From positions 1 through 64,000 of the forward strand of contig JYFJ02000538.1 of NCBI GenBank assembly GCA_000934665.2: a stretch of DNA of 64,000 bases. The letters are read 5' to 3'. Positions 10,294 through 35,909 of the stretch are shown one piece after another; position 1 is the stretch's first letter, and each line of letters opens with the position of its first letter. The notes under the pieces were generated by a model. The model saw only the letters and a program-made list of their open reading frames with translations, did not search any database and had not been told where the DNA came from. Made by a program: the position numbers and the translations under genes. Source of the DNA: Catajapyx aquilonaris (taxonomy: Eukaryota).

Positions 10294-13200
10294 CTACTGA
10301 TCCTCCTCGCCCAGGTCAAGTTTAACCTTGGAGAAGTCAAAGTCCTCTCCTGTCCCTCGGCGGAAGATGTCCAGCACATCCAGACAGGTGGTTTCAAAGT
10401 GGGTCGTCGCATCATACGACTTTGAGATAAACACCTGCGAGTCCCGCCCGTCCAGTGTAGGCTCGTAGTAGTCGCTTACACTCACGAATCTATAAGAAGA
10501 TACGATTATTTGGACCATTAATGACACAGCTCCTTATTCATAAATTGTCAGAAACATCAGATATCATTTAAAACTAATACCTCAATAATCCCTAACTATA
10601 TAACCTATGTGTAGCTCATCTGCACATGAACATCCACAAACGAAGGACATTTTCAACTCACTTTTGCTTGATGGGTCCAAGCAACTCCAACCCAGGCTTG
10701 ATCTCTGACTCAGGGTTATCTGTCTCCACAGTAGTGGAAACCATGGCAATGAACCACCCCTTCGCTGCCACTTGATGGGTGTAGCTCACCACTGACACAT
10801 ATATATCTGCAGCAGAAACAGCAAGCCAGTAAAAATACTGATGCCCATAACAACCACATCAAGTGTGTCCTCACCTGACTTGCGCCCAACTTGCTTCTGC
10901 GGGATGATGATTTGTGTTGAGAGAGCGTCTCGTGTGTTGCTTATGGGATGGTCAAGCAAGCAGATGCAACGCACCACTTTCCCAGTCTGAAAGAAGTGCA
11001 CAATTTAGTCATTGACGGTTACATTCTTGCAATTGCTAGATGGGAACTTACCTTGCGTACAGATCCACGCATATAGGATGGATCACAATACACCTGCTTG
11101 CACTTGGCCACTTCATCTCCAGAGCGGACTCCAACTACCCTGCCACCATCCATCACAATCTCATCGACAGGCTTGTCAAGCATGTAAGTACCACCATATA
11201 TGGCACTCAACCTGAGTAAGAAGATGGCCAAATTTTTATTCCAGTCATGAGGTTGTAGTTTTGTACAAGGTTCTGACTCGGAATGTAGAGTAAGGGAATA
11301 GTCTCACCTTGCAAATCCCTGAGGCAGCTCTCCAAGCCCATACATTGGGTACAGGTAGGGTGACTTCCCATAGCGAGCCAGGGAATCAGAGTAGAGCTTG
11401 ATACGGCGAATCGTCTGCAGGGCAGGCTGATTGAGGTAATCATCGTCCCGGTACAAGGCCAGGGCATGACCAGTGAAGTCCTGTGTGTTCTTGTCGAGAC
11501 CAAATTTGTCATACAGCATGGTCATTGGGTGGTTGTTGGCATCGATCTCCTTCCAGGTCTTGGGGTCCTCCTCACGAAAATCCTGCACATACACCAGGAA
11601 GTTTTTGAAGCGACGCTTCTCAAACATGCCCATCAGGTCGGATGCCAAGGCTTCCTTCTCATCTACAGGAACCTGTAAAAGTTTAAAAGGCACGCTATAA
11701 TACAAAGTAATGCAAATGATGAAACGAATGGTAAATAATTGACATTGGGGGTTACTGTAACATTACAAATACACTGACCTTGGAGATCTTTCCACCCTTG
11801 TAGACGTAGCTGCCTTCCACAGATTTGAACTCAAGGTACCGGGTGACACCAGTGTGAATGAGCAGCTTCACCAGCTGACCGTTGGCCATAAGGAACTTGG
11901 GAATGAGGTCCACATTCCAGTCCCGTCCCCGTCCATATGACTCGTCTGGTGGGGGGGCTCCGAAACGGGTGAAGAGCTCTTCCAAGGGGGTAATGGAGGC
12001 AGACTCACCACCATAGTACTTGTTACGGTCTATGTGCAGCACCTTCTTGCCTGAGACGCTCAGCATCCCACTCAGGATACATTCCTGCAAAAAATATTAG
12101 TCAAATATTTTAATGCTGTTGAATGACTGTTGGTGTCGCTGCTAAACCCTTTGAAATATTTTTATTATTATTTTACATCAAACAGTAAAACAGATCTGTA
12201 GCTGATACTGCAAACTTGTCAATAACTGAGCAACACCTGCATCTGGAGTTAACAATATCACATACACCCTTCATAAGAGTGGCTTTGTTGAGTATTGACA
12301 GTTGGTCAAGTATTGGATGTTAAATGAAAATTTGATTTTGAATAATCCTGCATCACTCTGAATAACCTTTAATGATCCGGAGGAGGGCCATCTGTTATCA
12401 ATTTTCGCCTGTAACATGATATTCGAACCGTTGCCTTAACGATATCATGCATATGACTATCAAAAGCCACATGAGAGGAGTTTGATAAGTTCGCAGCTCA
12501 GGGTTGAGCCTCTCCAGCATAACAATGGAAATGGTTCCAAACGTGTCCGAGGTAAAGGGATGCAAGGCGGATGTGATGGTGCTAAAACATGTTTTGGCTG
12601 GAGGTTGTCTGCTTAATTTACGTGTATGTGGTTTTGTGAAGAGGTTGGCAGCACTCCAATTTTGGGGATTGTAGGATACATGCTACATTTTTTTCTTACA
12701 CCTTCTCATGCGGGTGTTGAGTGAGGTGGAAAGCGTGGTAGTACTTTTATCACTAGTTAACAGGCGTGTAAGCTTACATACACACCATGAGGGATTCTAG
12801 TCAATGGATAGTTTTTTGTAGTTTTCATATCACTTTTTCATTTGCTACACTACACTGCATACACTATACACATCCCCCGCAGAGAAAGTTCCACAGTATG
12901 CTCACCGATTTCCCTTTGAAAATATGTGTTCAGGCTCAATGAAAATTGAAATTCTGCAGATGGTGAACAAAACCTGCTTTTCCTATTCTTAATGGCACAA
13001 AATGAATACAAACGACAACACTTTACAATATCTTCCAATCACAACTGGTGATTTAAGTTAAGACTGAATTAGCCTTTTAAATTGCAAATATTCTGCATAA
13101 TGAATATTTTATCGAATTCTCGAGCAGGGTGTTTAGTCAAATAGGAAGGTTCAATTTCAGAACCACCACATAATTGAATAATATGGAGAAAAAAAACCTT

Positions 13201-14926
13201 CAAGAATGCACGTATATTTGCATTTCAGAATCTTACGCTGTGTAGGGGGGGAAGCGTTAAGATGGGTGGGAAGGGAAAAATATCCTGAGAGATACGAAAG
13301 TGGAGCTTTCCTTTTTTCATGCCACGATTCGGTCTGATGGACACCAGGAACTTTGCGGTCTCTTTTGCAATGGAAAAGGTGCGCTCAACGTGGTACAAAG
13401 CAGGACTTCTCTCCCTATATTTCAATGCGCTTGCTGTAACTATGTAATGTTGAAAGTGGATATTAAGTTCTGATAACATGTCATTAATCACTACCTGTGA
13501 GCAATAGTGCAAGTCATGGTTTTCTCCATTGTTCACTGCAATTCTCACGGCATAATCCTAAGTGTAATAGCCACCTGGATGAGTTAATATATGCACATGT
13601 ATGGCTTTTTTAAAAATGCAGCAGGCCAGTGTTTATAACTGCATTCAACCTTCAGACATTCAATATGTGTGGTTATCTAGTTGCAGATAGGAAGTTGGTA
13701 AAATAAGCCTAATTGAAAGGCTGATATGAACTGTGCAAAAATGAACATGTTTACAATAGAAAATTGCCTTTTGTTACTGGAGGCAGTAAAAATCAATATC
13801 CCCTTCATAATGTTCCTTATCAACTAAAAATAGCTGACTAATTGAATGTGGGTACTGGTTATCAAAGAAAATTAAATAATTGTATTCAGCTATTTCATTG
13901 TGGTTTAAGGTGTACAAGCAGGGTTTGCAGGTGTAAATTTTTCAAAAACCCATAATAAACTTGTACATTGTGCTAGCTTTACTTTAGTGCTACAAACTGT
14001 TTTGTGCTCCAAGGATGTATAAAGCAATATATTTTGCTTATTGTTACTCTAGTTGATGATGACTAGAGTATACTGGAATACGGCATGGCAAATAAAATGT
14101 AATTGAGCGGAAAACCAAGTAGAAGGGGGTACATCCCGATAAAAATGTCAACTGTGGCAGACCTTGCTTCTGCCCAACACACAGTTGGGGGGAAAAAAGG
14201 GGGGGCTGACCCAGAGGTCGGTTGGGAAGGGCATCAGGCTAAATTGGCTGCTAATTATTTCCTCTCGAAAGGGTCTTAGTCCTGAAATTTTGACAAACTC
14301 CCCAGGCTCATTACTAGAGCCAAATCCAGTATTTATCCTATTCAAAAATGCAAGTTTCCTGTAATAAAATATCGTACTGATGTACAAAAGTACCATATTA
14401 CAAGTCAATGTAACATTGGTCCTAGACACATGATTTACATGTGCGACAACTGTCAGCAGTACCCAATAGGATAGCACAAAGTATATGTTCATTTCATAAG
14501 CGAACGTGTTATCCTAACCGATCCTAGTGCAACATTGCCACGTCCCTGTTGCAATAATCCTCAATTACAGTACTTTTTACAACTCATGGTGTGTATGTTG
14601 TATCATTTTTTTAAAGCATATATTTCTAATTTAACATGGTTCACTTGTATTGCGGACTGCCTCAACAGAGAAATGTCATGACTTGTTTGCTTAGGGTTGT
14701 TCCAATAAAGGGTCCGATTAATATGCTGCGTACACATGTCAGTTTGTACTAATGACCTACCAGAACCTGTTGGCCCCACAGCCTCCCAGGGTGTAATACC
14801 GGCACACGTCAATCATTCCCCCNTCAACCAGCCCAGGCCTGGCTTCGAACGAGGGAGAGCGATTCCAACAACCAAGCCTACCTTGAGCCCGGTGCCCAAC
14901 ACGATGGCGTCGTACTCCTCATCCAT
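10294..14926 (-). CDS. GDI: Rab GDP dissociation inhibitor, multi-exon
   Basis: [92 protein letters not shown]; canonical splice sites. Confidence 0.98.
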
Positions 14927-26614: not shown

Positions 26615-27724
26615 GCAGTTTGTCACCTACAAGAGGTTCTCTTGTAGCAGTTGTCTAGGACAAGCATGTAGTATGGGTTCAGTTTGTACAAAAGAGACAT
26701 GTTAATAAAAATTGTGACTCAGTAGCAGATCTCTTGAAAGTCTGGCATGACCACAAATTGAAGAATTTTCTAGACCACTCGTCAAAAGCTCACAGAAATT
26801 ACCATGCAACCCCAAGTGCAGAAAGCTGGTCATACATGACATGTTGGGATTACGTATTGCTTTGTTAGTTTACGAGATTTGAAAGAGGGATGAACAGTTA
26901 TTTCTGACATGATACAGCCATTTCAAGGGCAGGAACCATACTGGAATTGACCTGGAAGGCACTGAGGGAAACTATAGGTCTTTGCATGATTGTTTATCCT
27001 GACATGGGGGCAACAAGCATGACACACTGGCAATGCTAAAAGCCTAAATGTTAGGATGAAGATGCAGCACTTGCTATCTGACCTTGAGGCTTCCCTGTTG
27101 GAGCCCTCAACCAATGAGTGCAAATCTTGTGCCAATATAGAGCTCCAATATGGCTCCCTGGAGCGGGGAATTACACTATAGTACCTCACTGAAGAAGTGG
27201 CATGTGATAGGTCTTGATTGATGTGATGATGGAGGAGACAGCCCAAGCAAGAGTGGTTCAAGGGATGGAGCATGGGATGGATGGTCAGACTAGTGGATGT
27301 GACCACCGCGCTGCAGAAAAATGTCAGTAGTCAGTTCATTCACCAAGGGCATGCCAAGGGTGTATGCAGGCACACTGAAATTAAACAGGTTGTATCACAT
27401 TGATACGTGACTTACTTGGTAAGGCCAATAAACATCGGACCTTCATCGCAATGAAGTATTCCTTAACTGACTTGTTCAGTCCAATCATTTGCCGATATTT
27501 CCACTTGCAGAAGCTAAGAAAGGGTATTAATCTTTTGATGTTAAACATACAAGATTAATGGTCTCAAGGTGTAATGCTATTCATTGGATATCGAGCAGCA
27601 GTAATATGCTGAGTAGCGTAATAACTTGTGACTCCTACAGGAACTTTGTACTACCATAATTTTTTTGTTCCCAATAGTGAATGGCAGTGTGGATGAAGAT
27701 GAAGATGAAGATGAGCTAGTGCCG

Positions 27725-30700
27725 ATGGCAGAGAAGAGAAATGTGGAGGAGGAGGAAGCTAGATGGGCCAGGTTTGGTCTCATGCCAATCTATAAATGCA
27801 ATCAAGGTGAGTTCACTGTCAAGATTGCAAATTAGAAAAGCTGTAACTGCTGTTGTATAATAGGAAAATCATGAGGGAACCTTCCTCGTTTTCCTTCAAG
27901 AATATAAAGAGGTATGTTCTTCCTTTAACAGAACTTCAAGAAAATGCTGCAAATATGATGCGTCTGGTATTTGCTATGTACAACAATAATGAGGACTTCT
28001 TCTTTTCTGTTGTCAATTCCATTCCACACTTCCTCTGGCGATTTGCTATGGTGATGAATAACCTAGCCATCAACATCCATTGGCAAACACCATTGCATGT
28101 ACGTTAAGTATTTTCAAGTTAATTTCAAATATTGAGGAGTCCAGTGGAGTCCATTTCTTAGGAGGCTTCCCGTTTTATGGTTAGTTCTCCAGTTTAAACT
28201 GATAAACCATACTTCTCTTTTTTTCTTTTAGCTAGCTGTGGCTATGGGATCTGTAAATATGATAAGGGAGCTCTTAAAACGTGGGGCTGACCCGACCTCG
28301 CTAACTCACAACACATACGCCACTGCATCAGACCCGACCATCTTACACTGTGCGACATTACGGACACTGGTTGATAAGCTAAAGTTTTTGCTGGAAGAAG
28401 GGGTATGTCCTGTGGACTTGACCGGCTGTGATGGAAAAACCTCACTGCATGAGGCCATAAGTGTGGGTTCCTTAGAAATGGTTAAGCTTCTACTGGACCA
28501 TGGTGCAGATCCAAGAAAAACAACTGCATCACATAGAATAATGACCGCAGGTCTTGAAGCATTATTTCCCACCGTTGAGAACCATCAGTGGAACTCATTA
28601 ATGTTGGCAGCTGCAGATGCCCAATGTGAAATAGTTGATCTTCTACTTGAAAACCACTTTCACGATGGCATTAACATGACTACAAATAATGGAGCTACAG
28701 CATTGCACTGTGCAGTCAGGTGTGTAACTGTAAAATTATAATGGGGACTCTGTGCTTCACCTCCTTCCTTTAACAACCACTTTCAGAGGTGATTTTAGTG
28801 TCATTTTAACATTTTTTCTTTGAGTATAAGGACTTCAGTGTAAGCAACTTACCTTTTTCCTCGTAGACTGTGTGACTCAGAATCACTGGACAGTCGGAGA
28901 GCCACTCTTCAACTCCTTCTGGACCATGGCGCTGATCCCAACGCCCAAGTAACAAGCAATGGCTGCACTCCTGCACATGTGATCCTTCAGGATACTAGTT
29001 TCACTGAGGATGTCAGGTTGAATCAGGTGCTGGACACCTTGGCACTGCTTCACCACTGGAAGGCAGACTTCAGCATTCAGGACATGTGTGGGAGAACGCC
29101 CCTCCACTTGGCTGTGGCCTCGGGGTTCTGTCAGTACGTGCAAGCCCTGCTGACGTATGGAGGCAGGAATGAAAAGCGAGACAGGGATGGAAACACACCA
29201 CTATTACTGGCAGCTCTGCATGGGAATTCTGACACCTTTGATCTGCTGATGCAGAGTGAATCGTTTGATATGAACACCCATGTTGTAAGTTCTTTGAATA
29301 TTTTAACAGGTGGAGACCATGTCAAGATTTAGAGATTACTAAGAAAATGGTGATACCTGAAGGTATAGTACTACATGTCCTGAACTTGTCTTCCTTTAGA
29401 ATTCTTGGGGACACAACCTGCATCATGCTGCTGTCTTGGGCTTGCATGTAAATCCAAAAGGAGCGAGCATTATTATGAATTGTGTCAATGGCCAAATTGA
29501 CCCGAAAGAAGTGGATAAACAAGGAAGGACACCCAATGATTATGCTCATCATGTTGGATTTTTGAATGACCTGGACATCACCAAATATGAACAAAGAGAG
29601 TCATCCAAGAAAGACGATCCAAATATATTTGACCTAATTCGAAGTTGCCCTGACTACAAACCCAGTGAGAATGAGACATATGATCCGGCAGTGTGCAGTC
29701 ATTACCTTCTTAGGCTCTCTGAGCATCGAAGACTTGGAAAAATACACGATGACCCAAAAATGTGTGGGCATGAGCGATGCCTTGTGGCCAAGCAGGTATA
29801 CACTATGATGACATCTCTTTGGTCAACTCGAATCACTATAAATTTTTTAGTACTGCAGTAATGGGCTGTGTACTGCAAACAATTGGAGACATCCATTACT
29901 CATATCCATTTGCAATTGCTCCTTACTGTTGCAGGTATATGACACAGTAACCAGCCTTCTGAGGTGTGCATGTGAAGTGGACCAGCGCTTCAAGGGAGAG
30001 CTGCTTCGGACAGGGAGCATCTATGAGGGCTTCCGACTGGATGCTCCAGATGAGTTTGACCTCATGTATTCATTGGAAGAACTGACTAGTGCACTTACTG
30101 TTCGGAGCAGTGATGTTCCTGGATTTGTGTATGTAGAAGTGGCGGAACCAATGAGGAGTAAATACCAGGATCTTATTGACGACCATAACTTACTGAATGC
30201 TCAGAAAGTCAAAGAATTGATGGTCCGACTCGTATGGGAGGCTGCCAACCCAGAAACATGGAGCCTTTTGCCTGGACTGCATGCCAGTTGCACCAAGTAC
30301 CACAAGAATTGTGCTGTTTGCAAACCTATGGTGAGAGACATTTATTTTTTTGTGGCCGTGCTTTTGCTGATCTGTGATACCCTGCAGGTGGATTACACAT
30401 GTCCTGGAATCCAACTTCAGCTGATTTGGATCGGCCAGGAGTACAAGTGGCTTGCAATAGATGTGGATGTTATTCCCACCCTGAAAGTTGAGGGATGGCC
30501 AGAGGAAGCAGTTAAACCACAAAACGTAGACTGCTCATTCTACTACCTGGTGATTATTATTTTCAAAATATCTTTTGAGAATCATACAACTTATCCCATA
30601 TTTTCAGCCGAGGGATTTTTCATTCTAAATGTGTCATTCTTCATGATGTATACTCCAGCTTTGAGCTTGAGCATGATTTGGTACTTGACATTTGTAGTTT

Positions 30701-31470
30701 CATTGAAATGTCTTATTCATATTAATGAAATAATGATCATTATATCGATACAATTATTAATGATAATCCCAAACAAATGACTTTTTGTTGTAGAAACTGA
30801 ATATACACTCGCAGTTTGATGCTGATCATTTTCTCTGAATTTAATGCAGGTGCCAAAATCTGAAACCACCAATCCACTGCTGTGGCGTTTGTCTTTTTCA
30901 CACCAAGAGATGCAGATACTTCGCAGCCTAAACTATGAAACCCAGCATGCCTGCTACGCTATCTTAAAGATCCTGAAGGAATGTTACCAAACCATAAATA
31001 CTCTCCACACATACGTGATGAAGTCACTGTTATTCCAATCGCTAGATCAATTCAAAGACGAATCAGATTGGTCCCCAGATCAGCTGGCTTTGAGAGTGCA
31101 GCATATCCTCCAGATCTTGTTGCAGACAGTGAGTAATGAGAAGGAATCGATTCCATCCTACTTCCTACCGAATTATCATGTTACATCAGACGGTCGCCAC
31201 CAATGGAAACAGGCTGTAACAATAGGATTCTTCAAGTCTGCAATCAAGTCCATGCTAGATGATTTGGAGCTGTTGGGGAAGGGAGAAATGTGTTGGCCTG
31301 TGAAAATGGATGCAGCATTGGAGAGTCCTGTTAATTACAGTGACACTGATTTACAAGATTTCTCAAACAGTCATGATGTTGATGATGATTATGATGATGG
31401 GTTAGTGTTGATTGACACTGATGGTGTGCGCTTGGTAGTAGGTACCCCTACTACACTTGAGGATGATTAG
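27725..31470 (+). CDS. Ankyrin-repeat + Mab-21/cGAS-like nucleotidyltransferase (cGLR) fusion, ~8 exons; 5' start uncertain
   Basis: Ankyrin motifs (QTPLH|LAVAMG, GKTSLHEA..LLLDHGADP, GATALHCAV, GRTPLHLAV, GNTPLLLAA) spliced in frame to a Mab-21 core: TGSIYEG..PDEFD, IDVDVIP, VPK..WRLSFSHQE, ILKILKE, LHTYVMKSLLF, IPSYFLP. Confidence 0.88.
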
Positions 31471-31870
31471 CGCAGGAGGCCTTAACTACTCCAACCAGTC
31501 GGAGTGGACCGAAATGGTTCAAAATTGCCCGCTAGGTAAGAAAGACACCACCTACCTCGGGTTCCAAGACTGAAGCTCAAACCCCCTCAGTGGCGGAGAT
31601 CAGCTAAAGTGCACAGGGGGAGCAATAATCTATAAGGTATATGAGTGTCCGGGGATCTGCGTCCACTATTTCCAGGGTAATAGTAGAGATTTCACTGTAC
31701 TGTATTTGGTGATTTATTTATGCAGTATCTTACACACATGAAAGTGGCAGTAACAACTGGACAGCAATGGGCATTGTTATCACATAAACCCTCACATCAT
31801 CAGCAGCTGATAGGACAATTCTTCAAAATTGCACATAACTTAGTTTACTCTTGTTGGCTGACTTACCTGT

Positions 31871-31987
31871 GGTTGCACCAACAAAATTACCGGTCCGATA
31901 GCTCCTAATGGACAGATAGGTAGACCTTTTAACATGTGCTGTTGGTCTGTTAGGAGCTATCGGACCGGTAATTTTGTTGGTGCAACC
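31871..31987. repeat. Perfect 38-bp inverted repeat (probable Harbinger-like MITE remnant)
   Basis: 31871-31908 and 31950-31987 are exact reverse complements; termini GGTTGCACCAA resemble the 2271 and 54348 elements. Confidence 0.8.
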
Positions 31988-32014
31988 AGGCATTAGCCTC
32001 AGCTGTTGGTAACT

Positions 32015-35000
32015 TTATGGTGAGCCTTTGGAATATTGTACACTAATTCCTTTTGCCTTGGCCCACTCTTGCAAGGCATTTTTGGCATCGTTTGCATTTG
32101 ACTTGTTTTTGCAGTAGACAAAGACTACATGCTCTTCATACCTGGTAAAGAAGTTGTTTATAAAATAAAAATATTAATGTGGACAAAACATTGCATGCAT
32201 AATGAAGGAAAATTAGTACTTCTTTGGTAATGTGGATGGGAAATCACATTCTGTCAAGTACGTTGCAATGTTTTCTCTGTACTTGCTGAAAAACCGAGCC
32301 CGAAAGATTGGGTTCTCATTATTGTTCCCATAGTCAAAGTGACCTGAAGTGACAACAAGGTCATTTGCTTGGAAGTTGACCTCAATATCTCGCTTGACTT
32401 TTTCTGCATCCTGAATGTAAACAAAAAAAAAATATGTAGGGCTACTGGACAACATTATGATTCAACTTACTGCAATAAAATGTCCCTCTCAAACACTAAC
32501 CTCCATTTCTTCACTCTCCATCCGAAACTTTCCTATGAAAGGATAGAACTGCCTCCTCTGAATACGCTCTAGGATTTCCTTAGCCTCAATACACCCATTC
32601 CCATGAAGGATCTGATGAAATGTGTAGTCGCTAAGTTTTTCATACATGGACATGTCATTTGAAGCTTCGCTGAATTTATAACTGAAACAAGAGAAAATTT
32701 TTCTAAATTAGACATCTATACAGTATACATGAACAGAATTTAATTATTTTAAAATGTTGTTTTGATTACTAGTGTGAAGTTTACTAATGGGGTTGACAGG
32801 TTAAACCATGTCTACATTAATGCAGACAAGGTTAAGAAAGTTTGTCACTGCATGCCAGATAGCAGGGTGTACCAGCACAGCAACATTGAAGGCGACATTG
32901 GTGTATGATAATATATTATGTCACAAGCATGGTCTTATAATACTAAGGTCTGGTCACTACCTCTTATCGCCTGCCAGGGCGTTTTGCATGAGGTGCTCAC
33001 TTGAGATTGCCATGAGACCGCCTTAGTTTCACTGCTACATTATGTGACGACCCTACCGGACCGCGCTGAACTTAGGTAGAAGGGAAGCAGCTACATGCGG
33101 GCCCAACACGGCCACTGGCGATCATGTTGGGTCCCCCAATGTAGCGCTTCCCTTTTGTACCTATGAAGTTCAGCAAAGTCCGGTAGGGTCACCACATAAT
33201 GTAGCAGTAAAAGGCGGTCTCATGGCGCTCTCAAGTGAACACCTCATGCAAAACACCCCTTCAGGCGATAAGATAAGATTATAGGGGTAGTGTCCGGGGG
33301 TTGGTCAGAAGCAAAAATTCAGAATTTGAGAGAACACTGCTGTTGGTTGAGGCATGTCAATGCCGTCCCATACCACACTTGAGTCAAGAATTCCAGCTTG
33401 TGTAAGTATTGCCAGATAATGGCATGTCCTTCAATGACTGCCATCATCACTGGCATACCAACTAAGTTCTTGAAGTGCTCACATATAATTTTATGCCCCC
33501 CATAAAAATTCAAACACCTTTCTACATTCAGCCTCCATTTTGACATACTACTGCTACCCTATGTCTGTGGTGATGAAATCTGTTGAATATTGGTGGGATG
33601 GTGTTTTCTCATACCATTAAATTTTGTATAAAACTTCCTACTGATTAAAAAATGCATGCATTACTTTCAGACTTCTCTAATATCCCCATCAAAATATTTT
33701 AAAGGTCGCAACCAATTTTTTACTATTACATCGAGATCCACACCTACCATTCATTGGCAGCGATGAATGCATCCAAAATCATTTCCTCGATAACTTTGCA
33801 CACCCGATGTTGATATGCATGCCGATGCAGCTTTTCCCTCATGGCATACATTTCAATCAGATTGTTGACTTCCTTGTTGCGGTATGTTATGTGCCCATTG
33901 TTGACACGTGAGAATTTCATGATTCGAGTGTAATCAAAAGATGTCTTGATATTCAAGTGCAAACCATCCCTAAGGAGGTAATCCCACTTGTCCACATCTA
34001 TGCCTGTTTCTTTGTTGCTGACAATCTGGAACAAATACCAATTGTCAGAAGGATACTCACAAGTAAGGTGTACAATAGTAACAACATGGGAACTCACCTC
34101 ATACAGGTAAGATTTCTCAGGCCTCAGCATTGGCTTGGTTTCATTCCGCCATATCAACTCTCCAATGAACTCCATGTCATCATTTGTGAGAATCCAGTAT
34201 GGCCTTTCTCTCAGATTGTTTTGGTCAACAATATGTGTGAACATTTCAATAGAGAACCTTTCATGCTGTGAAAGCAATTTACACCTATTAGAGATCACTT
34301 TCTGGGTTAATGGGAGCTTGTCACAATGTTTGAATCCAAAAACAAACTGCCAAAAAAACAGTGCAGCCTGGACCCTGGATGGGGAGAAATAATTTTGCAC
34401 ATCATGGGACTTGCTGTTTGGTCCCAATGGAGGATTTCCAATACATTTCCATTACATTAACATTTGTCAAGCATAAAGCGGCATTTACATGCGAGCCATT
34501 TGACAAGCGAAGTCATCGCGAGTGACGTAACAAATATTTTGCTTGAGGTGAAAGTAACAATCGATTTTCGCCTCAAACAATACTGGTTACTCAGGTTACT
34601 CAGCATTGTTATCGCCGGTGATCAAATCACTCACATGTAAAGGCAATGAATCTCAATTCCACTTTAGACAAGTTTCACTGCATTTTCTTATTGGTAAGCA
34701 CATGGAGAATTGCATTACTACCGCTTGATGCACTGCAACAACAGAAGGGGTGATATAAGGACAGTTTATTCCAGTAACTAAGTTAATGAGAGTGAACAAT
34801 CACAATTTGTGAATGCAACTAACTATTGCTTTTCTCCAAATTAGTTTCTGCAGTGAAAAATACAAAACCTCTCCCCATTCTACCCACTTGGACTGTAGAT
34901 GTGGCACCTCCCTACATGTGACGTATGCTTACCTTCCAGTTGGTGTCTGGTTTCACCCTGAGCATGAACCTTTCCCACAGGTGTGAAAAGGGACCATGGC

Positions 35001-35909
35001 CCAAATCATGGCAAAGACCTGCTACCTGCAGGCAGAGAATGTCTTTCTCCGTGATTCCCAATTCAGGTTGCTGGCGCTGCAAGTGCATTCCGTATTCTCC
35101 TGCCAGGTAACATACACTGAAAATTATTGCAAGAGCACATTACTAATTAGGCTGATATGTGTGAGAGGTAGACAAAGTTTCACTTTGTATTTCTCATGTA
35201 CACAAGAGTCAGTGCAAAATTCCTCCTGACCATCACACTGATTTTAGCAATTTCTACTATATTTTTCTCCACGCATGATAAAATGACATATCTATGAGTA
35301 TAAATTACCAATCTCCTATTTTGTGGCTCATTTCAATTCACTTTAGTCTCAAAATTAGTTAATCAGATCTGCCAAATCTCCATGCAAGGGGCATAAGCTG
35401 TAGATAATCTTCAGGTTATGTCATAATGGTTCAGTTTGTAAACAGCTTGTCAGATAATAAGCTCATGCTGGTTCAACTGTCAAAAAGAAAAGTTTTTGAA
35501 TTTTTACTGTCAAGTAAGAAGTGGTCACATGTTTTCCCCCCTTCAGAAAAGTTTCTCATCAGTACTTCCATCAGAAGCAAGAAGACCGTAACTCAAATAC
35601 TAGTTTTTGAGTTAGAGTCTTCTTGCTTCTGACGGCAGAGTAGATGTAAGCTTGCACAAAGGGAGCTATTGAAAATCATGCTGGAACACCGCTCTGAAGT
35701 GGATTTTATTTTGGTACGTGAAGCATTAAAATCTGTAGCTACCCAATGCTGTGCTCAAATCTGTTGTGGGATGCTCCGGGATAGACATAGTAGGCACTTC
35801 CCAGCTGCTTCAGGTCACGTAGTCGTTGAAATTGAATGGTGTCCACTATGGCCATGCAGATGCAGGGTAGCTCAATATGGCCATGGACACTGTCATTGAT
35901 TATCTTCAT
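32015..35909 (-). CDS. SAMHD1: SAMHD1-like HD-domain dNTP triphosphohydrolase (no SAM domain seen), multi-exon
   Basis: [91 protein letters not shown]; stop TAA 32015-32017. Confidence 0.92.
32963..33272. repeat. ~310-bp imperfect fold-back element in SAMHD1-like intron
   Basis: cttatcgcctg..gttttgcatgaggtg..ctgctacattatgtg..ccctaccgga pairs with tccggtaggg..cacataatgtagcag..cacctcatgcaaaac..caggcgataag along the whole length. Confidence 0.8.

Follow-up and report, generated by a model that had tools for sequence, protein, structure and literature searches.

Contigs of a public run and domain matches support one spliced gene of Catajapyx aquilonaris in which an ankyrin array and a Mab-21 nucleotidyltransferase domain are joined. 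The gene, here called ANK-cGLR, lies on the plus strand of the window (the whole 64-kb stretch analyzed, positions 1 to 64,000 of the forward strand of contig JYFJ02000538.1); its eight exons run from ATG 27725 to a stop codon at 31468–31470 and encode 909 amino acids. We hold with high confidence that it is a real fused gene of the cGAS-like receptor (cGLR) type. Its product is predicted, with somewhat better than even confidence, to be an active synthase of a nucleotide signal. Putative activation through the ankyrin arm by a non-nucleic-acid cue is put forward tentatively.

Gene structure and contig evidence

Joining the exons at canonical GT..AG borders gave 2730 nt and 909 codons with zero internal stops. 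All seven GT-AG introns were skipped exactly at the predicted borders by contigs of one public run, for which the kind of library is unrecorded. In the same run, contig depth was zero in two intron or flank bins (27522–27695 and 30654–30827). Intron-skipping contigs together with empty bins are the pattern expected of cDNA; a processed DNA copy may also be the source of intron-less contigs. As the contigs are overlapping pieces, none of which reaches across the whole gene, we infer the single full-length transcript from their succession.

Exon 1 (27725–27806) supplies the start codon and residues 1–27 and ends in phase 1; a contig joins 27804 to 27930, skipping 125 nt, with GT..AG at a cut shifted by +2. 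The N-terminal capping helices and the onset of ankyrin repeat 1 (WQTPLH) are encoded by exon 2 (27932–28098), which aligns with the cap at the N-terminus of P0125, a homologue from a jellyfish. Contig record 1 bridges exons 2 and 3 (28098 to 28232), and record 2 bridges exons 3 and 4 (28717 to 28865). By our own parse, exon 3 (28232–28719) holds ankyrin repeats 1–5 and exon 4 (28867–29284) repeats 5–8. A further joint, 29284 to 29400, leads into exon 5 (29400–29795), which comprises repeats 9–10 (29400–29594), the linker (29595–29699) and the N-terminal helix of the Mab-21 domain with a His/Cys cluster, HDDPKMCGHERC, at 29745–29780.

Exon 5 carries the fusion itself: one open frame runs from the end of the ankyrin array through the linker into the conserved Mab-21 N-terminal helix. 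The 29795/29935 junction between this ankyrin exon and the following Mab-21 exon is crossed by a contig of the public run (record 3, with 29484–29791 joined to 29931–30220). The original prediction that the ankyrin repeats are spliced in frame to Mab-21 is borne out by both observations.

The nucleotidyltransferase core, with T-G-S, E-F-D and a CxxC at 30310–30321, lies in exon 6 (29935–30330). A contig joint at 30329 to 30387 skips 57 nt to reach exon 7 (30388–30549), whose beta strands bear the third catalytic aspartate, D676, within AIDVDVIP. Intron 6 (57 nt) is in frame and stop-free and was considered as coding sequence; this was rejected, the 19 residues it would add being absent from homologues and the contigs skipping it. 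The joint between exons 7 and 8 (30548 to 30849) skips 300 nt. Exon 8 (30850–31470) encodes WRLSFS, TYVMK, the Mab-21_C helix bundle, an acidic C-terminal tail (31321–31467, pI 4.05) and the stop codon. The 3' untranslated region begins at 31471 and reaches at least to about 31899, contig record 5 being unbroken over 31272–31899.

At the 5' end, positions 27678–27724 contain GATGAA repeats and are open in the coding frame (VDEDEDEDELVP) with no in-frame ATG. Three-frame translation gave a 12-codon upstream open reading frame here in another frame, from ATG 27681 to TAG 27717–27719. ATG 27725 is the only in-frame ATG and puts the N-terminus within about 10–16 residues of the N-termini of homologues. 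Because those N-termini fit this start, the acidic VDEDEDEDE stretch is probably 5' leader rather than protein; the contig comparison skipped 27682–27723 as repeat. Of the acidic tails proposed at both ends of the protein, the C-terminal one stands and the N-terminal one probably falls before the start codon. An upstream coding exon spliced onto the acceptor-like 'ag' at 27676–27677 was also considered and found unneeded, given the fit of homologues to ATG 27725 and the bins over 27000–27695 without contig cover.

Elsewhere in the window, a neighbouring GDI gene best matches hexapod and Daphnia GDIs (79–85% for one exon, ~80% over all HSPs), which hints at arthropod affinity in a gene too conserved to be decisive. 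Pfam searches found no STING- or TIR-type match among 114 open reading frames of at least 90 aa across the rest of the 64-kb window, nor among 32 of at least 45 aa between 31.8 and 38.3 kb.

Ankyrin array, Mab-21 domain and relatives

Pfam matches were obtained on the open frames for Ank, Mab-21 and Mab-21_C, in agreement with the architecture first proposed (roughly 8–10 ankyrin repeats plus Mab-21). Frame 28232–28741 matched Ank_2 (E 3.8e-23) and Ank (E 3.2e-20), and frame 28844–29332 matched Ank_4 (E 5.2e-18) and Ank_2 (E 3.8e-16). On exons 3 and 4, the only ones in which Pfam itself marks ankyrin repeats, the families Ank, Ank_2, Ank_3, Ank_4 and Ank_5 all scored above threshold. Our own parse, guided by colinear homologue alignment, gives about ten tandem repeats of the 33-residue ankyrin type at residues 77–450. 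Both halves of the nucleotidyltransferase were matched on separate exons, Mab-21 (PF03281, E 1.4e-9) on 29851–30780 and Mab-21_C (PF20266, E 1.5e-11) on 30826–31470, and PDB matches cover each half.

An exhaustive phmmer search with the catalytic core gave 124 matches at E ≤ 1e-3. An ankyrin match N-terminal to Mab-21 was found in 71 of these 124 by a local phmmer proxy, which was queried with the C. aquilonaris ankyrin region and undercounts (it misses P0029, for example, which has Ank by Pfam). With Pfam, 23 of 30 chosen relatives had both Ank and Mab-21; the sample combined the 10 best matches with 20 long proteins of ranks 15–41, so the fraction is biased to long proteins. All 36 relatives of P0004 (36/36) carry both domains.

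Residues 76–405 align colinearly with the ankyrin arrays of homologues, and the ankyrin region is colinear as a single stretch with those of P0004, P0002, P0003 and P0001. Whole-length identity to the seven relatives compared was 30.7–34.5%. The nearest relatives, colinear over both domains, are uncharacterized ANK-Mab-21 proteins of corals, a jellyfish and a lungfish: Stylophora pistillata LOC111336267 (P0301), Orbicella faveolata LOC110065914, proteins of Montipora capricornis and Oculina patagonica, Rhopilema esculentum XP_065060866.1 (P0125) and Protopterus annectens XP_043939976.1 (P0016). A shrimp ANK-Mab-21 protein (Penaeus indicus XP_063612337.1, P0120) clusters with ANK-cGLR in a weak tree. 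This was a quick tree of 36 Mab-21 domains, leaving out P0019 and matches covering fewer than 250 query positions; in it the branch that joins the C. aquilonaris protein to the shrimp protein and the jellyfish/coral clade has SH-aLRT 84 (not starred). At least four changes of the ANK label are needed on starred branches, and short rows without ANK beside near-identical ANK rows resemble partial gene models, so we take no count of fusion events from this tree.

Colinear domains, the catalytic residues and an acidic, disordered C-terminal tail are common to these relatives and ANK-cGLR, and the nearest of them also have the N-helix His/Cys cluster and the CxxC. The linker differs, at about 35 residues in C. 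aquilonaris versus a 67-residue disordered stretch in P0301. Judged by alignment, ANK-cGLR belongs to an old, colinear ANK-Mab-21 clade.

Predicted active site

The predicted active site is complete and strongly conserved. T-G-S is encoded at 30010–30018, DEFD at 30049–30060 (E-F-D at 30052–30060) and DVD at 30460–30468, with E557 and D559 (of E-F-D) and D676 (30466–30468) as the catalytic acids. Among 123 aligned relatives, G544 (120/120), S545 (120/120), E557 (119/120), D559 (120/120) and D676 (112/112) are nearly invariant, counts biased by retrieval of the relatives with the catalytic core as query. The G-S (30013–30018) and D-E-F-D motifs named in the original prediction are thereby located and conserved. 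Its third acid does lie in D-V-D, where the conserved residue is the second aspartate; the first, D674, is Asp in just 23/112 aligned relatives. WRLSFS (30883–30900) and the YxxK motif, as TYVMK (31009–31023), were likewise found as described. The TGS...EFD region of exon 6 aligns to human cGAS (E 3.1e-5), WRLSFSH is identical in mouse cGAS, and AIDVDVIP aligns to PIDVDLVPAIRIECWPKPA of oyster Cv-cGLR1. An alignment of ten relatives showed the N-terminal helix and His/Cys cluster to be conserved in all.

The residue motif given for cGLRs by Li et al. 2023 (PMC9980059), h[QT]GS ... [DE]h[DE]h ... h[DE]h, corresponds to R-T-G-S (542–545), E-F-D-L (557–560) and V-D-V (675–677) in ANK-cGLR, the residue preceding the T of R-T-G-S being arginine and not hydrophobic. 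The same source gives spacings of X8-20 from GS to the acid pair and X50-90 from the acid pair to the third acid. The first spacer (11 residues) lies inside its range and the second (114 residues, 561–674) outside. Since the corresponding interval in coral P0301 (E615/D617 to D735) is about as long, the 114-residue spacer is read as a clade trait and X50-90 as a heuristic, with no residue of the site missing.

Ligand sensing and comparison with known systems

The Mab-21 core of ANK-cGLR has a pI of 5.18 and a net charge of -12.5, within a whole-protein net charge of -44. According to Li et al. 2023 (PMC9980059), cGLRs that sense dsDNA or dsRNA have pI > 8.5, and acidic cGLRs are proposed to have non-nucleic-acid ligands. 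By that analogy, the acidic core is consistent with a putative non-nucleic-acid cue for ANK-cGLR. The coral, jellyfish and lungfish proteins listed above have less acidic cores, and a few more distant relatives have cores as acidic or more so. Across 60 relatives the core pI had a median of 7.2 and spanned 4.6 to 9.6, so acidity is not a clade trait and the pI argument, a crude one, applies to the C. aquilonaris protein only.

The reading we prefer is a catalytically competent ANK-cGLR under ankyrin control, a blend to which we give about an even chance. About ten ankyrin repeats are tethered by the short linker to a Mab-21 nucleotidyltransferase, and the enzyme would make a second messenger, a cyclic di- or oligonucleotide, by analogy with cGLRs sharing its active site. 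Docking of a nucleic-acid duplex in a basic groove would not turn on the acidic core. Control would instead pass through the ankyrin solenoid, either as the binding site of a ligand, protein or otherwise non-nucleic-acid, or as a brace that keeps the enzyme in a fixed and regulated pose.

Structure models of homologues ~32–35% identical to the C. aquilonaris protein bear on the fold and, weakly, on that pose. The AlphaFold2 model of coral P0301 (32% identity) had Cv-cGLR1 (8gjw; E 2.6e-12, TM 0.77 by target) as its best non-ankyrin PDB match and also matched ankyrin-R/B and DARPins. Two full-length homologues had pTM values of 0.75 and 0.72 despite disordered linkers, where independent domains would give ~0.5 by our own arithmetic; pTM being the model's own confidence, these values hint weakly that array and enzyme hold a fixed pose. 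A complex prediction of P0301 ankyrin (12–463) against Mab-21 (531–920) yielded no answer (score 0.00) and is evidence neither way.

An ordinary nucleic-acid-activated cGLR, with dsRNA or dsDNA as the switch and an array that just localizes the enzyme or recruits downstream partners, is unlikely but the best placed of the alternatives. In the sections of PMC9980059 available, all cGLRs whose ligand is defined are sensors of dsDNA or dsRNA; the nucleotide-binding motifs here are cGAS-like, and near-basic cores occur in the clade (pI > 8.5 in 8/60; 7.9–8.6 in many coral members). Against these stands the acidity of this particular core, far from > 8.5. Less likely still, the synthase could be auto-active and ligand-free, its output set by transcription, turnover or ankyrin placement and its ankyrin arm no sensor. 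Six cGLRs are described in PMC9980059 as active without added ligand, including very acidic ones such as Pd-cGLR (pI ~5.0); the paper's own suspicion is that a ligand co-purified, and a large ankyrin array conserved in colinear form from cnidarians to a lungfish argues for a specific binding role. A non-enzymatic scaffold acting by protein-protein contact (for example with a TBK1/IKK-epsilon-type kinase), with ankyrin repeats adding contacts, has precedent in three cGLR-related shrimp Mab-21 proteins that reportedly bind no dsDNA or dsRNA, make no cGAMP and activate IKK-epsilon directly (PMC12928593), and exon 8 matches non-enzymatic MiD51 slightly better than cGAS (3.5e-6 vs 8.9e-5), yet it is improbable, as G, S, E, D and D kept in 112–120 aligned relatives and a cGAS-like WRLSFSH are hard to explain without catalysis.

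Extended to the clade, the preferred ankyrin-controlled reading yields a speculative scheme that we think unlikely to hold in full. The clade (corals, jellyfish, shrimp, lungfish and C. aquilonaris) would be an ancient protein-sensing cGLR, its solenoid posed on an acidic nucleotidyltransferase by a clade-specific Cys/His (perhaps zinc) clamp from N-helix to core, and a pathogen or danger protein in the ankyrin groove would release cyclic-nucleotide synthesis. If true, this would give the first demonstration of a cGLR turned on by protein rather than nucleic acid. Ligands beyond double-stranded DNA and RNA are a question raised by Li et al. 2023 (PMC9980059), and ANK-fused cGLRs are obvious candidates for sensing proteins or other non-nucleic-acid ligands. 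With its unusually acidic enzyme core and short linker, the C. aquilonaris protein would be well suited to experiments on whether the ankyrin arm acts as a sensor, as an inhibitor or just as a localizer.

Vertebrate cGAS (human, mouse) is alike in the Mab-21 fold family and in the TGS...EFD and WRLSFSH stretches. It differs in lacking an ankyrin array, whereas C. aquilonaris has one and a core that is acidic rather than basic; the acid-to-acid spacing of 114 residues also sets the C. aquilonaris protein apart. Its Cys/His cluster, in the N-helix and before the third Asp, is unlike the zinc thumb of cGAS, which is positioned after the third Asp. Oyster Cv-cGLR1 (PDB 8GJW) aligns with the C. aquilonaris motifs through IDVDLVP and LLWRISFTH; it is a stand-alone enzyme of ~355 residues and, according to PMC9980059, a dsDNA-sensing cGLR. 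The 'auto-active' Pd-cGLR of Pocillopora damicornis, for which a non-nucleic-acid ligand is proposed there, resembles it in its very low pI, the portions of that paper available making no mention of an ankyrin fusion. Inactive Mab-21 relatives resemble the C. aquilonaris protein in the sequence of the C-terminal helix bundle, with PDB matches of exon 8 to MiD51 (best), cGAS and then MAB21L1 (2.8e-4). The Mab21L group lacks a predicted functional active site (PMC9980059, Fig. 1 legend); because the C. aquilonaris protein has the complete GS, ExD and D set, it is not placed with MAB21L1/2 or MiD49/51 despite the MiD51 match.

The closest comparison is with ANK-fused cGLRs, already an architecture class in the text, Fig. 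1C and 4C legends and supplementary tables of PMC9980059, so the novelty of the original prediction was overstated. Its catalogued members, for example Orbicella faveolata XP_020601746.1, Procambarus clarkii XP_045605232.1 and Actinia tenebrosa XP_031557634.1, likewise combine ankyrin repeats with a nucleotidyltransferase whose active site is predicted complete, a likeness of architecture. The locus names and six peptides of the coral homologue gave no match in the partial supplementary-table cells. The ankyrin repeats of cGLRs are proposed there as 'ligand-interacting', with no function of any ANK-cGLR reported in the text available; a full-text literature search for functional studies of ANK-fused cGLRs found none, Li et al. 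2023 alone being relevant. As that paper lists ANK-fused cGLRs, the C. aquilonaris gene adds one more member to an established class. Taken alone it is a divergent member without a new principle, and a compact ANK-cGLR example with splicing backed by contigs.

Gene structure and start of the protein

The window is eukaryotic sequence, and its forward strand has, from 27.7 to 31.5 kb, a series of open frames that matched ankyrin families followed by Mab-21 and Mab-21_C. Pfam placed Ank_2 at 28232–28741 (E 3.8e-23), Ank_4 at 28844–29332 (E 5.2e-18), Mab-21 (PF03281) at 29851–30780 (E 1.4e-9) and Mab-21_C (PF20266) at 30826–31470 (E 1.5e-11), all on the + strand, so that a profile search recovered both parts of the ankyrin-fused cGAS-like receptor (ANK-cGLR) put forward by the original prediction. 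Eight + strand exons (27725–27806, 27932–28098, 28232–28719, 28867–29284, 29400–29795, 29935–30330, 30388–30549 and 30850–31470) with canonical GT..AG borders were joined to 2730 nt, encoding 909 codons and a stop with no internal stops.

The sole in-frame ATG lies at 27725. Counted from it, the first ankyrin motif, WQTPLH, falls at residue 77, compared to residue 61–67 in three coral homologues, and the preceding capping helices are shifted by 13 residues relative to those of the jellyfish homologue. An acidic N-terminal tail had been proposed, but the segment concerned (VDEDEDEDE, 27678–27724) is upstream of this ATG and is most simply 5′ leader. A coding exon further upstream may exist, since 27682–27723 was passed over as repeat during contig placement; the leader remains the simpler account. 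A 12-codon upstream ORF (27681–27719, ATG...TAG), consisting mostly of GATGAA repeats, lies immediately ahead of the main ATG in a different frame.

Exon 5 is a single open frame that encodes the final pair of ankyrin repeats, then ~35 residues of linker, then a helix (HYLLRLSEHRRLGKIHDDPKMCGHERCLVAKQ) that ten relatives also keep at the N-terminal boundary of Mab-21. The ankyrin and Mab-21 parts are therefore joined inside an exon, not merely across a splice. Splicing was assessed using contigs of one public run (library kind not on record), in which 53% of sampled words of 27600–31600 were present. All seven introns were skipped exactly where predicted, each with GT..AG ends, and one contig crossed the junction between the two parts, joining 29484–29791 to 29931–30220. 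With the shared exon 5 frame, this contig across 29.8–29.9 kb upholds the claim that both parts belong to one gene. Contig depth was zero in bins 27000–27695 and 30654–30827. Skipped introns and zero-depth bins form the pattern of cDNA; a processed DNA copy is formally possible as the contig source. No contig among those listed covers the whole gene, and the single transcript is thus inferred from overlapping pieces. Intron 6 (30331–30387, + strand; 57 nt) is in frame and stop-free, and its retention would add 19 residues to the core. It was rejected as coding since the contigs skip it and the 19 residues are absent from homologues.

Active site and protein family

The catalytic motifs were found where they had been predicted: GS at 30013–30018, DEFD at 30049–30060 and DVD at 30460–30468, along with WRLSFS (30883–30900) and a YxxK motif, TYVMK (31009–31023). 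WRLSFSH is identical in the window's protein and mouse cGAS. The stretch LLRTGSIYEGFRLDAPDEFDLMY aligns with human cGAS (E 3.1e-5), and AIDVDVIPTLKVEGWPEEA aligns with PIDVDLVPAIRIECWPKPA of oyster Cv-cGLR1, an alignment weak alone that lies inside a larger listed match.

An exhaustive phmmer search with 29935–30549 as query against 1.84 billion representatives yielded 124 proteins with E ≤ 1e-3; identity to the top one was 35%. Most are 800–1100 residues long and match around residues 500–800. Conservation was counted for 123 of the 124 aligned to model residues 481–870, using only rows with a residue in the column; because the catalytic core had served as the search query, the count is biased to sequences keeping that core. 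G544, S545 and D559 were unchanged in 120/120 and E557 in 119/120. D676 was Asp in all 112 aligned relatives versus only 23/112 for D674, placing the catalytic set at T-G-S, E-x-D and the latter Asp of D-V-D. The gene is confirmed as a genuine ANK-cGLR whose active site is intact and conserved.

Thirty relatives (the top ten plus twenty long proteins of ranks 15–41, a sample biased to long proteins) were examined with Pfam: 23 carried Ank and Mab-21, five Mab-21 only, one Ank only, and one was unrelated. By a local proxy, 71/124 have an ankyrin match ahead of their Mab-21 domain. The window's ankyrin region (76–405) is colinear with residues 79–430 of P0004, an uncharacterized relative, in one stretch, and single-stretch colinear alignments were also obtained for P0001, P0002 and P0003. 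Whole-length identity to seven relatives was 30.7–34.5%. When the Mab-21 part of P0004 was used as query, both domains were present in 36/36 of the proteins retrieved; those with names come from Stylophora pistillata (LOC111336267), Orbicella faveolata, Montipora capricornis and Oculina patagonica. Relatives were also identified in a jellyfish (Rhopilema esculentum), a lungfish (Protopterus annectens) and a shrimp (Penaeus indicus). A quick tree placed the window's protein with a jellyfish/coral group and the shrimp protein (support 84, unstarred).

E-F-D-L and V-D-V are separated by 114 residues, a distance about equal to that in the coral homologue P0301 and outside the X50–90 of the cGLR motif as given in the accessible parts of the published catalogue (Li et al. 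2023, PMC9980059). The extra length is partly a loop with CxxC (C643, C646; 30310–30321) ahead of the strand bearing the third Asp. The nearest relatives keep these cysteines as well as H501, C507 and C512 of the N-helix (29745–29780) of Mab-21; the cluster is absent from the P0040/P0041 subgroup. Judged from sequence, the cluster resembles a metal site, perhaps for zinc, and differs in position from the cGAS zinc thumb.

The 3′ end and neighboring genes

The predicted acidic C-terminal tail was borne out (31321–31467, pI 4.05); a hydrophobic patch, DDGLVLIDTD, closes it. In coral relatives a similar tail, rich in Ser, Asp and Glu, precedes a short hydrophobic segment and is disordered in models. 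The patch may be a candidate short linear motif.

The ANK-cGLR gene is followed, tail-to-tail, by a gene for a SAMHD1-like dNTP triphosphohydrolase on the − strand (32000–35300), with an HD domain at 34915–35139 (E 9.1e-7) and a frame matching SAMHD1 structures at 33747–34451 (E 4.9e-30). The two 3′ ends are at most a few hundred bases apart, so that two antiviral-type genes adjoin, possibly by chance. Across 31870–32200 contig depth rises approximately fourfold (to 59.8), and four loose contig ends and a single A>G difference (at 31900) occur there. The SAMHD1-like transcript, being convergent, probably has its 3′ end here, or the stretch is a repeat.

Neighbors in 1–26000 and 41000–64000 are housekeeping genes. 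The − strand carries Mcm10 (3.3–6.4 kb), Rab GDI (10.3–14.9 kb), an Ig/FN3 protein (16.7–21.9 kb), PheRS alpha (43.4–47.8 kb), DUF3522 (53.4–54.3 kb) and the UBA1 E1 enzyme (63.4–64.0 kb); a C2H2 finger (48.0–48.4 kb) and an acyl-CoA dehydrogenase (51.2–52.7 kb) are on the + strand. The Rab GDI exon for residues 14–120 (gene at 10297–12090 and 14861–14926) is 96% identical to a protein of the silverfish Thermobia domestica, and the best database matches of this gene are hexapod and Daphnia GDIs, a hint, short of proof, at an arthropod source. No second Mab-21 gene was seen among ORFs of at least 90 aa within the window.

Domain pose, charge and comparison with known cGLRs

AlphaFold2 was run on two full-length homologues, coral P0301 (pLDDT 78, pTM 0.75) and jellyfish P0125 (pLDDT 74.9, pTM 0.72). 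Both models comprise a confident ankyrin solenoid, a disordered linker (464–530 in P0301, 457–495 in P0125) and a confident Mab-21 domain. By our own arithmetic, a pTM of around 0.5 would be expected for two domains of such size placed freely; the higher values therefore hint, at the level of the program's own confidence and no further, that the ankyrin array may be fixed in pose on the enzyme in these homologues. The best non-ankyrin PDB match of the P0301 model was Cv-cGLR1 (8gjw; E 2.6e-12, TM 0.77 by target).

The ANK-cGLR architecture is already known. According to the accessible parts of Li et al. (2023, PMC9980059), stand-alone proteins make up 87% of cGLRs, ankyrin or TPR modules occur in some (Fig. 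1C), and three members from S. pistillata are fusions with ankyrin repeats or death domains (Fig. 4C). The supplementary tables hold ankyrin-named or Ank-annotated cGLRs from sea anemone, corals and a crayfish, and further Ank-annotated accessions. P0301 was not matched by locus name or six peptides in the available part of these tables, which has no bearing on its membership. Full-text literature searches found no functional study of an ANK-cGLR. The gene would make a tractable test case.

Computed values for the Mab-21 core (residues 518–860) are pI 5.18 and net charge −12.5, and for the whole protein pI 5.19 and −44. The 60 relatives whose core is nearly complete had a median core pI of 7.2, with 26 below 7 and eight above 8.5; acidity is therefore not a fixed trait of the clade. 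In the same accessible text, dsDNA- and dsRNA-sensing cGLRs have pI > 8.5, acidic ligand-independent cGLRs such as Pd-cGLR (pI ~5.0) are described, and a positively charged non-nucleic-acid ligand is proposed for acidic members (Li et al. 2023, PMC9980059). The enzyme core of the window's protein belongs with this acidic group, and the originally predicted mechanism, triggering by a non-nucleic-acid cue, is a reasonable inference that matches an idea already in print.
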